Source: a virus
Lineage: Duplodnaviria; Heunggongvirae; Uroviricota; Caudoviricetes
Length of the DNA stretch: 8,605 nt
Reading direction: 5' to 3' (one strand)
IMG/VR virus record: IMGVR_UViG_2695420564_000006
Below the pieces are notes generated by a model. The model saw only the letters and a program-made list of their open reading frames with translations. It was not told the DNA's origin and ran no database searches. Positions within the stretch are counted from its first letter, which is position 1. Every line of letters begins with the position of its first letter. The translations under genes were made by a program, and so were the position numbers. This document shows, in pieces, positions 1 through 8,605 of this stretch.

Positions 1-436
1 GCTTGCTGCTTTTCCGTAAGCACCGCTCACGGCGCGCCAGAAAATTGTTTCGTTCTGACTGGGAGTGGCTTTCACGGAATGCCGCCATCCACACGGTTGC
101 AGCACGACGGTATAAGCCCCTGGACTCCAGTTCTTCAGCCTGGCGGGTCAGGCACAAAATTACCCGGGGATCGTTAGTGCCGACATAGAAATTGCGCACA
201 GGTCTGGTTTCACGAACTGGTTGTGGTTCCGGCTCCTGCGCTCTCTCAGTCAGGCGCGGGAAATGTCTACGTGTATCTCCTTCACAACGGTGAGCCACAC
301 GCCCACTCTGACGTAACTTGCTTGCTGACTGCAGAACGCGCTGCCGTGAGTAACCTGCAAAAGCATCCGCAATGTCTCCGGAAGTACACCCCGGATGGGC
401 TTCAATGAATTTCTGAACGTCATTCAAAAGACTCAT
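1..436 (-). CDS. PerC-family-like transcriptional regulator with an N-terminal extension; 5' complete, 3' end runs off the window start
   Basis: ATG at 434-436 (minus), 2 nt after the stop of the upstream gene, preceded by a G-rich SD-like stretch. Open frame of 145 codons to position 2 with no stop; absent from the ORF track because it leaves the window. Translation ends ...AEELESRGLYRRAATVWMAAFRESHSQSERNNFLARRERCLRKSSK, matching the PerC/Pch pattern (LE-x-x-GL-aromatic-RRAA-x-x-W ... RR-x-x-CL) as I recall it. Confidence 0.45.
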   Translation of the reverse strand, partial: MSLLNDVQKFIEAHPGCTSGDIADAFAGYSRQRVLQSASKLRQSGRVAHRCEGDTRRHFPRLTERAQEPEPQPVRETRPVRNFYVGTNDPRVILCLTRQAEELESRGLYRRAATVWMAAFRESHSQSERNNFLARRERCLRKSSK

Positions 437-438
437 AA

Positions 439-1257
439 TCACCCCCTGAATCCTGCCGGGATCTGGCTGTAGTCCACATTGTCGTAACTGGCTTTGAAGT
501 ACGGGTCCTCGCGTCTGGCTGCAGATACTGCAGGAACTTCCCAGGATTCTTCGAAATGACGATCCGGACCAAAGAACGTGACAGCCTGTTTCACAAATTG
601 TGTGCCGCTGTTACCCATCGCAGATACCCAGCCCGCGTAGCGTTTCACACCTTCCAGCAAGGTTTCGGGGTTTACCCCCTCATTCAAACGGGCTTTCCAG
701 GCTTTGAAGGCTGCAGATTTTGAATTGCCACCAGCACGTTTGGGATAGGCCAGCCATGCCTGCTCAAACTCCGGAGAGTATTCCGGTCGGTTTGAACGAA
801 CTCGCACAGACTCATCAGCAGATGCACCAACAGCTATTGGTTCATTGACTGGTTCTTTGACTGGTTCAAAAGAGTGACTGGTTCTGGGTGAATCTCCTGC
901 ACTACCCCCTGGTGCAACTCCTGCACTATCTGGTGAATTTGCTGCACCAGATAGTGAATTATTTGCACTACCCCCTAGTGAATCTCCTGCACCATCAAGA
1001 TGAAGGAGATAGATATTACTTGAGTTACCTTTTTCACCTTTCCGGGTGACTTTTTTTACCAGCCCGGACTCACAAAGGGCCGCAATATGATTCATCACAG
1101 AACGTTTGCTAATCTCGCACTGGTCAGCAATATGCTGGTAGCTGGGCCAGCACTCACTCTGATCGCTGGCATTATCAGCCAGCTTGATCAGAACCAGTTT
1201 TCGCAATGGATTACCCACTCGAATTTTCATCGCTTTAACCATCAGCTCCATACTCAT
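439..1257 (-). CDS. phage-type replication initiation protein: N-terminal helix-turn-helix domain, repetitive Gly/Ser/Ala/Pro linker, C-terminal domain
   Basis: 272-aa ORF in the track. N-terminal region has an HTH-like segment (SYQHIADQCEISKRSVMNHIAALCESGLV). Central low-complexity linker (GAGDSLGGSANNSLSGAANSPDSAGVAPGGSAGDSP, EPVKEPVNEP) is encoded by tandem DNA repeats. Start overlaps the stop of the upstream ORF (ATGA at 1254-1257). Sits between Rha-like and PerC-like prophage genes. Confidence 0.6.
   Translation of the reverse strand: MSMELMVKAMKIRVGNPLRKLVLIKLADNASDQSECWPSYQHIADQCEISKRSVMNHIAALCESGLVKKVTRKGEKGNSSNIYLLHLDGAGDSLGGSANNSLSGAANSPDSAGVAPGGSAGDSPRTSHSFEPVKEPVNEPIAVGASADESVRVRSNRPEYSPEFEQAWLAYPKRAGGNSKSAAFKAWKARLNEGVNPETLLEGVKRYAGWVSAMGNSGTQFVKQAVTFFGPDRHFEESWEVPAVSAARREDPYFKASYDNVDYSQIPAGFRG
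887..994. repeat. iteron-like array: five imperfect ~18-bp direct repeats at 21-24 bp spacing (candidate replication origin inside the initiator gene)
   Basis: Units at 887-904 ggtgaatctcctgcacta, 911-928 ggtgcaactcctgcacta, 932-949 ggtgaatttgctgcacca, 953-970 agtgaattatttgcacta, 977-994 agtgaatctcctgcacca. Each is bounded by GGTG...CACC-type inverted ends. Three copies of (t)tgactggttc lie just upstream at 845-884, and a moderately AT-rich stretch follows at 996-1060. Confidence 0.5.
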
Positions 1258-1478
1258 GCTGCACCTCCGAGATGCTTCATGTTTTTTCCGGAGCGAAAGG
1301 CTATAAGCGGCATACTGACGCGGTAATTACGGCCCAGCGGTTCACAAATCACCTTCTGACATTCACGGTCAACCAGGCTAACACGTAGAACATGCCCTGC
1401 AGGCGTGGTGTACCACTGACCCGGACGAGGACAACAGAAAGTATGATTGGTAAACCGTTTGAAAATATTCCGGATCAT
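1254..1478 (-). CDS. small hypothetical prophage protein (74 aa), Cys-containing, possibly metal-binding
   Basis: ORF in the track. Start overlaps the stop of the upstream Rha-like ORF (ATGA at 1475-1478) and its stop overlaps the start of the replication gene. Cys residues at 15, 16, 40 and 45 (CC-x23-C-x4-C). No family recognised. Confidence 0.35.
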   Translation of the reverse strand: MIRNIFKRFTNHTFCCPRPGQWYTTPAGHVLRVSLVDRECQKVICEPLGRNYRVSMPLIAFRSGKNMKHLGGAA

Positions 1479-1855
1479 TTGCGCCCCCTTACCTCTGAAG
1501 GGTTCAGCGACAAATTTATGAGGCAGGCCAGTGCCGAAGCATCATTAATATAGTCATACAAGCTAACAGCCAGCGGAGATTCGGCTTTTGCCAACATAGG
1601 ATAAAGCTGCTGCAGCCAGACCTGATGAATTGATGAAATGTAGGAATAGAGAACGCTGGCGTTATGTGCAACGTCGCTCAGTACAGAGGGATTTGAAAGC
1701 TGTTTCTCCATCTGGTTAAAGGCATTTATGTATGCCTCTTTGAACCGGGCAGCACGTTTACCAGTGAAGCCCATAGCAAGGAACGCGAAGCCATCGCGGG
1801 TGATTTGATAGCAAGGTAGTTTGCGGCCTGTGCAATCGGTGTAATCACTNANNGA
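1475..1855 (-). CDS. Rha-family phage regulatory protein, C-terminal part only (5' end lost at the N-run 1850-1853)
   Basis: Translation contains [51 protein letters not shown], matching the conserved C-terminal end of the Phage_pRha domain as I recall it. The expected N-terminal part of the domain is absent and the in-frame upstream sequence beyond the N-run is unrelated. The track ORF 1475-1909 uses a TTG in that unrelated sequence. Confidence 0.5.
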
Positions 1856-1973
1856 AGTTATCGACAACGACCGCGAAGACTGGAAGCGTATCTCGGCATC
1901 AATGCGCAAACAGCCTGATGCCCTTCGCTACAACCGCCAGACTATTTTTGGCCTTGTCCGTAAACGTCCGATC

Positions 1974-2420: not shown

Positions 2421-3263
2421 TTATTTTACCGGACGCATCGCCGGGAACAGAATCACGTCGCGGATGGTGTGGCTGTTGGTGAACAGCATCACCATACGAT
2501 CGATACCAATCCCCAGACCCGCAGTTGGCGGTAAGCCATGTTCCAGCGCGGTGACGTAATCTTCGTCGTAGAACATCGCTTCGTCGTCGCCCGCCTCTTT
2601 CGCGGCAACCTGATCCTGGAAACGTTGCGCCTGATCTTCTGCGTCGTTCAGCTCGCTAAAGCCGTTACCGATTTCACGACCACCGATGAAGAATTCAAAG
2701 CGGTCAGTGATTTCCGGGTTAACGTCGTTACGGCGTGCCAGCGGAGAAACTTCTGCCGGATATTCAGTAATGAAGGTCGGCTGAATCAAATGTGCTTCTG
2801 CCACTTCTTCGAAGATCTCAGTTACGATACGGCCCAGTCCCCAGCTCTTCTCAACGTGAATGCCAATAGATTCAGCAATCGCTTTCGCAGAGTCGAAGTT
2901 ATCCAGATCCGCCATCTCAGTTTCCGGGCGGTATTTTTTGATCGCTTCACGCATGGTCAGTTTTTCAAACGGCTTACCGAAGTCCAGCGTCACGTCGCCG
3001 TAGGTTACTTCCGTCTTACCGAGAATATCCTGTGCCAGAGTACGGAACAGCGATTCGGTCAGCTCGATCAGATCTTTGTAATCTGCGTAAGCCATGTAGA
3101 GTTCCATCATAGTGAACTCTGGGTTATGGCGTACGGAGATACCTTCGTTACGGAAGTTACGGTTGATTTCGAACACACGCTCGAAGCCGCCAACCACCAG
3201 ACGCTTGAGGTACAGTTCCGGCGCGATACGCAGGTACATGTCGAGATCCAGCGCGTTATNNAN
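2421..3263 (-). CDS. lysS: lysyl-tRNA synthetase, C-terminal catalytic (class II) domain, ~280 codons; N-terminal anticodon-binding domain missing
   Basis: Translation ...[51 protein letters not shown]...[32 protein letters not shown] matches LysS. The frame hits a stop two codons beyond the N-run at 3260-3263, so the gene is truncated there. Confidence 0.9.
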
Positions 3264-3362: not shown

Positions 3363-4604
3363 CCACNGGCANNNNTGAGCGAAACCCTGTTCAAACCCCG
3401 CTTTAAACATCCTGAAACGTCGACGCTAGTCCGCCGCTTTAATCACGGCGCGCAATCGCCTGTGCAGTCGGCCCTTGATGGCAAAACCATTCCCCATTGG
3501 TATCGCATGATTAACCGTTTGATGTGGATCTGGCGCGGCGTTGACCCGCGTGAAATCCTCGGCGTCCAGGCGCGTATTGTGATGAGCGATGCCGAACGCA
3601 CCGACGATGATTTATACGATACAGTAATTGGCTACCGCGGCGGCAACTGGATTTATGAGTGGGCTACCCAGGCGATGGAATGGCAGCAGAAAGCTTGTGC
3701 GGAAGAAGATCCGCAAGTCAGCGGGCGTCACTGGTTGCATGCAGCCACACTGTATAACATCGCCGCCTATCCGCATCTGAAAGGGGACGATCTGGCGGAG
3801 CAAGCCCAGGCGTTGTCAAACCGCGCTTATGAAGAGGCAGCGCAACGTCTGCCAGGAAGTATGCGGCAAATGGAGTTCACTGTTCCAGGCGGTGCGCCCA
3901 TCACTGGTTTTTTGCATATGCCAAAAGGCGATGGGCCATTCCCGACAGTATTAATGTGTGGCGGGCTGGATGCGATGCAAACAGATTATTACTCCCTTTA
4001 TGAGCGCTATTTTGCACCGCGCGGCATTGCAATGTTGACTATTGATATGCCTTCGGTCGGTTTCTCTTCAAAATGGAAGCTCACCCAGGACTCCAGTCTT
4101 CTGCATCAGCATGTTTTAAAGGCGTTGCCGAATGTGCCGTGGGTAGATCACACGCGCGTCGTGGCCTTTGGTTTCCGTTTTGGCGCTAACGTTGCTGTGC
4201 GTCTGGCTTACCTTGAATCACCGCGTTTGAAAGCGGTGGCTTGCCTTGGTCCGGTAGTTCATACCTTGTTAAGTGACTTTCAGTGCCAGCAACAGGTGCC
4301 GGAAATGTACCTTGACGTTCTGGCGAGTCGTTTAGGGATGCACGATGCTTCAGACGACGCTTTGCGCGTAGAGCTGAACCGCTATTCGTTAAAAGTGCAA
4401 GGGTTGCTGGGGCGTCGCTGTCCAACGCCAATGTTATCAGGTTACTGGAAGAACGATCCTTTTAGCCCGGAAGAGGACTCGCGGTTAATCGCTTCGTCAT
4501 CTGCTGACGGTAAATTGTTAGAGATTCCGTTCAATCCGGTGTATCGGAATTTTGACAAAGCGCTTCAGGAAATCACCAACTGGATCGAAAAACGATTGTG
4601 TTAA
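3363..4604 (+). CDS. frsA: fermentation/respiration switch protein FrsA (alpha/beta hydrolase); native ATG absent
   Basis: Translation from codon 2, (T)[30 protein letters not shown]...NWIEKRLC, matches FrsA over its full length. N's at 3367 and 3372-3375 fall in codons 2-5. The bases where the ATG should be (3360-3362) read cgc. An in-frame ATG at 3345 lies in unrelated upstream sequence. Confidence 0.9.
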
Positions 4605-5976: not shown

Positions 5977-6027
5977 NNNCNGNGGCGATGAGTACCGCTA
6001 ACAACAATGTTGGCGGCGCTGCGCCGG

Positions 6028-6119: not shown

Positions 6120-6217
6120 CTCTGGTGACTTTATCCGTAAATAATTTAACCCACTCCACAAAAAGGCTCAACAGGTTGGTGGTTCTCACAACCAAAAGCG
6201 GCANANNCNNCGCNNNG
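6120..6217. other. F-like plasmid oriT-like fragment (nic-proximal region), partly N-masked
   Basis: ggtggttctcacaaccaaaagcggca-N-a-NN-c-NN-cgc-NNN resembles the F oriT segment ggtggttctcaccaccaaaagcaccacaccccacgc (reverse complement of the nic-site strand). It is immediately upstream of the orf169-like start, as on F-like plasmids. Confidence 0.4.
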
Positions 6218-6889: not shown

Positions 6890-7630
6890 CCANNACTGGC
6901 CCGCGCGGTGGTTGCCGGGTTAGCGCAAGCAGATACGCTGAGGATGCGTTTTACGGAAGATAACGGCGAAGTCTGGCAATGGGTCGATGATGCGCTGACG
7001 TTCGAACAGCCAGAAATTATTGACCTGCGTACCAACATTGATCCGCACGGTACTGCGCGGGCATTAATGCAGGCGGATTTACAACAAAACCTGCGTATCG
7101 ATAGTGGTAATCCGCTTGTTTTTCATAAGATTATACAGGTGGAGGATAATCGTTGGTACTGGTATCAACGTTATCACCATTTGCTGGTCGATGGCTTCAG
7201 TTTCCCGGCCATTACCCGCCAGATAGCCAACATTTATTGTGCCTGGCTGCGTGGCGAACCTACGCCTGCGTCGCCGTTTACTTCTTTCACTGATGTAGTG
7301 GAAGAGTACCAGCAATATCGCGAAAGCGAAGCCTGGCAGCGTGATGCGGCTTTCTGGGCGGATCAACGTCGTCAACTACCGCCGCCAGCGTCACTTTCGC
7401 CTGCACCTTTACCGGGGCGCAGTGCCTCGGCAGATATTCTGCGCCTGAAACTGGAATTTACTGACGGGGAATTCCGCCAACTGGCAGCGCAACTTCCGAC
7501 CGTACAACGTACCGATTTAGCTCTCGCGCTGGCGGCATTGTGGCTGGGGCGATTGTGCAACCGCATGGACTATGCCGCCGGATTTATCTTTATGCGCCGT
7601 ATGGGCTCGGCGGCGTTGACGGCTACCGGA
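6890..7630 (+). CDS. entF: enterobactin non-ribosomal peptide synthetase EntF, N-terminal condensation-domain fragment (~247 codons)
   Basis: Translation P-x-LARAVVAGLAQADTLRMRFTEDNGEVWQWVDDALTFEQPEIIDLRTNIDPHGTA...YWYQRYHHLLVDGFSFPAIT...LCNRMDYAAGFIFMRRMGSAALTATG matches EntF residues ~30-275, including the HHxxxDG condensation motif (HHLLVDG). Flanked by unrelated sequence at both ends. Confidence 0.85.
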
Positions 7631-8531: not shown

Positions 8532-8605
8532 NNNANTATCAGCAGGAGCTGCTGGAAGGAAAACCAAAGCCCAACAACAGCGAACTGGTGGTACGCAACT
8601 GGTAT

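Follow-up and report, generated by a model that had tools for sequence, protein, structure and literature searches.

A PerC-family gene at the edge of a prophage fragment, almost certainly yfdN, with a predicted winged helix ahead of its PerC core

The DNA analysed here, referred to as the window, comprises 8,605 nucleotides of one strand from the IMG/VR virus record IMGVR_UViG_2695420564_000006 (Duplodnaviria; Heunggongvirae; Uroviricota; Caudoviricetes). The gene at its first end is, as judged by sequence comparison, almost certainly the 5' 89% of yfdN, which is carried as an accessory gene by lambdoid prophages of the SfII, SfV, ST64B and Stx2c types in Enterobacteriaceae. A stop-free frame on the minus strand, positions 2-436, translates into 145 residues, MSLLNDVQKFIEAHPGCTSGDIADAF...ARRERCLRKSSK (MSLLNDVQKF...RERCLRKSSK), starting from the ATG at 436-434 and exiting at the left end of the window; since full-length yfdN of Escherichia coli S88 specifies 162 amino acids, the copy in the window lacks the 17 C-terminal residues. 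An alternative GTG start at 442-440 gives the 164-amino-acid form as in many database entries. A preliminary description of this DNA had reported a homologue of the PerC/Pch virulence regulators at this end, and both peptides that it quoted are indeed present in the minus-strand translation, with their location correctly given. The gene and the segments of its product are as follows.

2..436, minus strand: yfdN coding sequence, codons 1-145 of 162, assigned from the translation and from 98-99% nucleotide identity to annotated yfdN; the 3' end lies outside the window
257..436, minus strand: predicted N-terminal winged-helix domain, residues 1-60
170..256, minus strand: variable linker rich in proline and glutamate, residues 61-89, with a predicted local distance difference test (pLDDT) score below 50 at residues 64-79, differing in length and sequence among homologues
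2..169, minus strand: PerC core assigned by Pfam, with its residues 90-145 inside the window and its end near residue 149 of the complete protein; a domain model shows three antiparallel helices

Positions 1-1909 of the window find prophage DNA of 98% identity by megablast in E. coli S88, APEC O1 and many others, with the matching gene labelled 'yfdN: PerC family transcriptional regulator' by RefSeq/PGAP. The copy in the CPS-53 locus (dsdC, torI, yfdT-yfdK) of a K-12-type laboratory strain, flanked by the initiator-gene remnant yfdO and by yfdM, is 96.8% identical at the nucleotide level. Proteins with 97-99% identity are encoded by the phages SfII, Kati, 2H10 and Ayreon and by Stx2a- and Stx2c-converting phages, and SfV, SfIV and ST64B also harbour yfdN. 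Of the 5426 complete E. coli genomes, 2547 (47%) carry the gene at a coverage of at least 80%, with up to four copies each. Equally, a large protein search recovered clusters of 162-164 amino acids with thousands of members that are 92-99% identical to the window protein, and nearly all members named by their source are called PerC family transcriptional regulator. The profile phrog_1324, 'transcriptional activator', matches the window protein from residue 1 to residue 145 (E 3.6e-68), and because PHROG 1324 covers the whole length, the long form is already a recognised phage protein family. The N-terminal extension, thought unusual in the preliminary description, is therefore the norm for the YfdN subfamily, to which the window protein belongs by similarity over both the N-terminal domain and the core and by synteny after an initiator with an HTH_36 domain. 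Database entries in which YfdN is fused to Dam, RusA, the HTH_36 initiator, baseplate J or a portal fragment (P0004, P0006, P0011, P0020, P0041, P0122, P0124, P0153) are mostly singletons and look like artefacts of frameshift, gene calling or assembly rather than real architectures.

The designation yfdN has been in use as a K-12 gene name for decades. The gene has been termed 'the K12 unique PerC homologue' (PMC5931665), and its product is still given as 'Uncharacterized protein YfdN' in a 2025 preprint. The gene, its family assignment and its long architecture are already known from RefSeq, PHROGs and the literature. YfdN of K-12 CPS-53 (KpLE1) and the orthologues SfII gp42, SfV orf40 and ST64B Sb43 (PHROG 1324) represent the same gene as the window copy, with the same length, the same succession of predicted winged helix, linker and PerC core, and the same position after the initiator (yfdO in K-12) and before dam or yfdM. 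Compared with the S88 copy, few substitutions (D6, S122) and otherwise nothing substantial besides the cut at the window edge distinguish the copy analysed here. What the present analysis adds is a predicted fold for the N-terminal domain and the reading of yfdN as a dispensable, cassette-like gene.

Membership in the PerC family is indicated by the Pfam profile PerC (PF06069), which matches residues 98-145 of the window protein with 34.9 bits (E 1.9e-8) against a gathering score of 22.6 bits, the domain being clipped by the window edge; the full-length protein P0014 reaches 38.8 bits. The reference proteins, taken from annotated records, were PerC of enteropathogenic E. coli (EPEC; plasmid pMAR2, of the EAF type), PchA of enterohaemorrhagic E. 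coli (EHEC; Sakai prophage Sp4) and PchE (P4-like element Sp7). In BLASTP, full-length YfdN is 30% identical to EPEC PerC (E 2e-6), 42% identical to EHEC PchA (E 6e-9) and 40% identical over 52 residues to PchE (E 2e-10), the latter being, in pairwise comparison, the closest of the short proteins. Together with the Pfam match, these values dispose of the possibility that the motif resemblance, on which the preliminary description had built its proposal of a PerC homologue, is due to chance. All three matches span a core of approximately 50 residues with the common motif A..LE..G..RRAA..W ... R..C, and ten positions, A100, L103, E104, G107, R111, A112, A113, W116, R136 and C139, are invariant in a joint alignment of YfdN-type proteins with PerC, PchA and PchE.

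PerC, the Pch proteins (PchA/B/C of EHEC O157) and YfdN are all basic and all encoded on mobile elements. Classical members are, as had been noted in the preliminary description, short and begin at the core (PerC 89, PchA 104 and PchE 90 amino acids) and do not possess the winged helix predicted for YfdN, whose core starts only at residue 90-98 of 162, outside the single-domain range of about 90-104 amino acids. On the other hand, PerC and Pch extend beyond the core by about 40 C-terminal residues that are gapped in the alignment with YfdN, where a tail of 13 residues is found instead. By profile, YfdN is a member of the PerC family; by architecture it is not a classical PerC/Pch protein. The genomic settings differ as well, with perC in the plasmid perABC operon, pchA in the late or moron region of prophage Sp4 and yfdN in an early operon. 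PchE (Sp7/OI-51) and the PerC-like proteins of phage-inducible chromosomal islands (PICIs), which are family members not activating the enterocyte-effacement locus (LEE), are single-domain proteins encoded on satellite or PICI-type elements beside a primase and an SSB gene, in contrast to the lambdoid early operon of yfdN. Modelled by itself, the core domain of YfdN folds into three helices with a pLDDT of 89.5. When used as a query for short PerC/Pch relatives in the large protein search, it returned YfdN fragments only, and a fold search with the PerC core gave only generic matches to TPR, MIT and designed helical-bundle proteins. These fold matches are suggestive of a protein-binding hairpin in the modelled core and are no evidence of homology.

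A profile search of sequences in the PDB gave no meaningful match, the best being YfiA with an E value of 0.5. The architecture of the entire protein was predicted with AlphaFold2 on an alignment of 19 sequences with 62-97% identity to the first sequence. The model contains two confident domains connected by a disordered linker, with residues 1-60 forming three helices followed by a beta-hairpin (pLDDT 85-90), residues 90-149 forming three helices (pLDDT above 90) and residues 150-162 being disordered. The order H1-H2-H3 and then a beta-hairpin wing is that of solved winged-helix structures, and the N-terminal 60 residues, which belong to no Pfam family, are here newly assigned to the winged-helix fold by prediction. 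The suspicion of an extra winged-helix domain in the preliminary description is thereby borne out with good model confidence. YfdN can consequently be described, as modelled, as a four-part protein of 162-164 amino acids, with a basic winged helix (residues 1-60; isoelectric point 9.8), a disordered linker, a very basic three-helix core (residues 90-149; isoelectric point 11.3) and a short tail. Conserved basic residues of the predicted helix 3 and wing are R31, K40, R42, R46, R57 and H58.

The sequence of the N-terminal domain has few relatives. Neither Pfam nor NCBIfam has a family that reaches its threshold on this domain. The sequence identity to small winged-helix DNA-binding domains such as those of MarR, ArsR, MecI and the N-terminal domain of T4 MotA amounts to only 5-21%. 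A phmmer search with residues 1-70 against 1.84 billion representatives retrieved 54 proteins, nearly all of them YfdN-type proteins or YfdN fragments; a donor family for the domain was not found in this search, the matches outside YfdN being few, weak and to long repetitive proteins. The most divergent full-length relatives, whose N-terminal domains are 38-52% identical, remain near 160 amino acids in length and still match PerC, which argues that the architecture is conserved within a narrow lineage of enterobacterial prophages. Homology of the N-terminal domain to lambda Ren was considered and rejected (hhalign probability 0.6%, E 0.099), the weak match to the 'Ren-like' phrog_142 (E 0.008) including no stretch that passes alone.

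In the window, yfdN lies directly 3' of a replication initiator on the same strand, as the preliminary description had it, its start being 2 nucleotides beyond the initiator TGA stop at 441-439. The features upstream of yfdN are the following.

442..447, minus strand: Shine-Dalgarno sequence AGGGGG for yfdN, read from the sequence, within the last codons of the initiator (F-R-G-stop)
439..1257, minus strand: phage replication initiator of 272 amino acids (phrog_270 'replication initiation protein', E 3e-87) with an N-terminal HTH_36 domain (Pfam, E 1.1e-10) and a DnaD-like C-terminal part
1254..1478, minus strand: open reading frame of 74 amino acids (phrog_1153, E 4e-44), with the Rha gene on one side and the initiator on the other, an arrangement kept in many of these prophages

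The same junction, with the Shine-Dalgarno sequence inside the end of the initiator gene, is present in nine other loci, and translation of yfdN is probably coupled to that of the initiator. No promoter-like or terminator-like site was detected on the coding strand of window positions 1-1900, which fits co-transcription of yfdN with the initiator. In all lambdoid loci examined, from E. coli, Shigella, Salmonella, Citrobacter and Hafnia, the gene order is cI-like repressor; then cro-like, cII-like (Phage_CP76), [Rha], the 74-amino-acid open reading frame, initiator, YfdN, [Dam], [LexA-like], RusA, KilA-N, DUF968 and Q, where brackets mark optional genes. An initiator followed by yfdN, with start and stop 2 nucleotides apart or overlapping, characterises 10 of the 11 types of loci that bear YfdN, and this order is seen in S88, the K-12-type strain, SfII, Stx2a_1447, Kati, Salmonella, Citrobacter and Hafnia.

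Phage mEp390 encodes the initiator, with its C-terminal tail motif, and no yfdN, and phage cdtI (NC_009514; L021 2578-2670), which has the tail motif as well, contains between the replication gene and dam only an unannotated remnant of 30 yfdN codons (MSLLNEVQKFIEAHPGCTSGDIADAF, then YVGD and a stop). The annotated start of the cdtI dam gene, at 2625, falls within this remnant. A divergent YfdN (P0160; 159 amino acids, 38% identity in the N-terminal domain; L015 3719-4899 and L016) is encoded directly upstream of Q, without an adjacent initiator, and is preceded by an open reading frame of 82 amino acids and a type I restriction-modification cassette. Furthermore, near-identical YfdN proteins are encoded behind initiators with only 31% mutual identity. 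The contexts in mEp390, cdtI and around P0160 argue that YfdN is an accessory cassette of the early operon and not a required replication protein, and by comparison of genome sequences yfdN is dispensable in at least two phages (mEp390 and cdtI).

The initiators themselves share a feature at their very end. Three scaffolds, namely the 272-amino-acid type, a type of 313-353 amino acids that is 31% identical to it and the 324-amino-acid Phg_2220_C type, have a common C-terminal tail (window 439-510, minus strand), which was examined in L002, L004, L007, L008, L013, L014, L017, L019, L020 and L021. The first two scaffolds end in DYSQ[IV]PAGFRG, the Phg_2220_C type (L019) shares IPAGFRG only, and the mEp390 initiator continues for three residues beyond the motif. 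Located past the Phg_2220_C domain, the tail shares its DNA with the ribosome-binding site of the following gene, and it is found whether or not yfdN lies downstream. Its codons differ at synonymous sites, which argues for selection on the peptide itself; the tail may serve one of the host's replication proteins as a docking motif.

Iteron-like repeats are observed inside the initiator gene (window 838-996). They consist of two direct repeats of 43 nucleotides (888-930 and 954-996; 81% identical), an inverted repeat of 24 nucleotides (912-935 and 945-968) and a tandem TGGTTCNTTGAC pair (838-861), encode a low-complexity GGSANNSLSGAANSPDSAG stretch and, by analogy with lambda O, probably represent the phage origin. 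The 74-amino-acid open reading frame had no Pfam, NCBIfam or PADLOC match; PADLOC matched no defence-system family at E <= 0.01, and the Rfam scan was negative. The remainder of the window is of a different nature. Runs of N at 1850-1853, 3260-3263, 3367-3375, 5977-5983, 6204-6216, 6752, 6893-6894, 7631 and 8532-8536 separate pieces that carry the prophage fragment (1-1849), idi and lysS, frsA, crl and phoE, a fragment of an epimerase/reductase-like gene, a fragment of entF, and purT. These pieces are not neighbours in E. coli, and the window therefore looks like a scaffold or a concatenation of fragments. Of the Rha-family gene, which is interrupted at 1850, the window has 144 codons, as against 383 amino acids in S88.

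Taken as a whole, these observations are best explained by yfdN encoding a phage protein that modulates transcription or nucleoid structure in the early phase, a reading that is considered moderately probable. YfdN would then be neither a dedicated activator of LEE nor a replication protein. How such a modulator works can be proposed more tentatively, building on a gene identity, family, context and dispensability read from sequence and on a modelled two-domain architecture. By analogy, YfdN may act as a DNA-tethered modulator of nucleoid-protein silencing or of transcription at phage or host loci, a mechanism that is possible although we would not count on it, DNA binding, anti-silencing activity and targets all being inferred. 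Translated from the early rightward operon transcript right after the initiator, the protein would be produced early after induction or infection; the winged helix, by its basic helix 3 and wing, would bind DNA and place the PerC core, which in turn, as its short relative Pch has been shown to do, would reshape nucleoprotein complexes of H-NS/StpA/Hha or act in some other way on transcription at these sites. Pch has been reported to relieve silencing by H-NS/StpA/Hha, to lower H-NS occupancy at LEE1 and to associate with DNA at many loci (PMC4764244). A more specific version, in which YfdN is a natural fusion whose own winged helix anchors a PerC-type anti-silencing module on DNA and which lambdoid phages use during early infection or induction to strip H-NS/StpA from their own AT-rich late regions or from host loci, is rather doubtful.

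Overexpression might reveal an effect of YfdN on the host. A glycogen-deficient phenotype was recorded upon overexpression of yfdN in K-12 in the ASKA screen (PMC2853380), and cells overexpressing a 2.5-kb fragment of UTI89 (C5098-C5102, including yfdN2) reproducibly became filamentous (PMC6206680). The two phenotypes are weak signs of such an effect.

Several points weigh against an early-phase modulator of this kind. H-NS was not co-precipitated with PchA (Fukui et al., PMC4764244), a literature search found no experiment on YfdN itself, and the UTI89 fragment contains five genes among which the causal one was not mapped (PMC6206680). Equally, members of the PerC family have opposite or no effects on LEE1, the one target tested, and the direction of regulation can therefore not be predicted. 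Finally, the approximately 40 C-terminal residues that are absent from YfdN may be needed for the activity of PerC and Pch.

An alternative would be an anti-regulator similar to the ANR family of Aar-type negative regulators of AraC proteins (NF033650), with the helical core binding and inhibiting an AraC-family activator, H-NS or a phage regulator, and with repression thus brought about by protein contact instead of anti-silencing on DNA. The resemblance of the core model to a TPR-type protein-binding hairpin points in this direction, as does a PICI-encoded homologue of the PerC family that represses LEE1 and for which ANR-like action has been suggested by the authors (PMC11773190). The NCBIfam profile ANR_neg_reg, representing a similarly short helical core, matches residues 96-142 of YfdN (E 1.9e-5), but its 24.4 bits stay below the curated cut-off of 32, while Pfam PerC passes its own. 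ANR proteins are furthermore single-domain proteins of about 60 amino acids (profile length 54), whereas the conserved basic winged helix predicted for YfdN argues for contact with DNA. An ANR-like function is accordingly regarded as unlikely.

A role in replication was tested because no separate helicase-loader gene is present and yfdN occupies the position of lambda P/ren. YfdN would be the second protein of the replication module, a partner of the initiator in the P/Ren slot that perhaps docks on the C-terminal peptide of the initiator. The almost constant position after the initiator (10 of the 11 locus types), the lack of any annotated P-, DnaC- or DnaB-type gene from the initiator to Q in the loci examined, the PAGFRG ending (mostly DYSQ[IV]PAGFRG) with synonymous codon differences on three unrelated initiator scaffolds and the weak phrog_142 match would all suit such a partner. 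On the other hand, the tail motif is retained in mEp390 in the absence of yfdN, only the remnant is left in cdtI, P0160 is encoded between the restriction-modification cassette and Q, away from any initiator, near-identical YfdN proteins are combined with initiators of just 31% identity, and the profile comparison with lambda Ren speaks against that relationship. The replication partner was rejected on account of mEp390, cdtI and the divergent YfdN beside Q, and is judged very unlikely.

The implication of a mobile virulence regulator, raised in the preliminary description, finds no support. It derives from homology alone, yfdN is frequent in strains that, like K-12, have no LEE, and family members differ in their effect. 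YfdN would in this case activate ler and LEE as PerC and PchABC do, for which LEE1 activation has been demonstrated experimentally, in contrast to YfdN, known here by sequence. The shared core and the presence of yfdN in Stx2a- and Stx2c-converting phages of O157 strains are in line with such a role, and Uhlich and colleagues deleted yfdN of MG1655 before testing Pch proteins on ler-lacZ (PMC5931665), presumably in order to exclude cross-activation. Against this stand the distribution of the gene, which is found in nearly half of the complete E. coli genomes, including K-12-type laboratory strains without LEE, and also in prophages of Salmonella, Citrobacter and Hafnia, the missing C-terminal segment, and the early-operon location as opposed to the moron position of pchA. 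Even within the family, ler is unaffected by PchD and changed only minimally, less than 2-fold, by PchE (PMC5931665), and PICI homologues have no or the opposite effect. Activation of LEE by YfdN is thus highly improbable. Scarcely credible to the same degree is a host-takeover factor that blocks cell division or growth, as suggested by filamentation upon expression of the UTI89 fragment, which, judged by position, stems from the chromosomal region that also holds the prophage copies of S88 and APEC O1, given that the causal gene among the five is unmapped and that overexpression of K-12 yfdN from ASKA is reported for the glycogen phenotype only.

The family name PerC should not be taken to mean 'virulence activator', as the YfdN subfamily is widespread among commensal and laboratory strains and tested relatives act in opposite ways. 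With YfdN present in K-12, the mechanism of PerC proteins could be approached in a safe and standard host. If YfdN were indeed a fusion that tethers the PerC-type module to DNA, the short PerC and Pch proteins would represent the untethered version of the same module, and YfdN would provide a tractable, K-12-resident model for how PerC-family proteins work.
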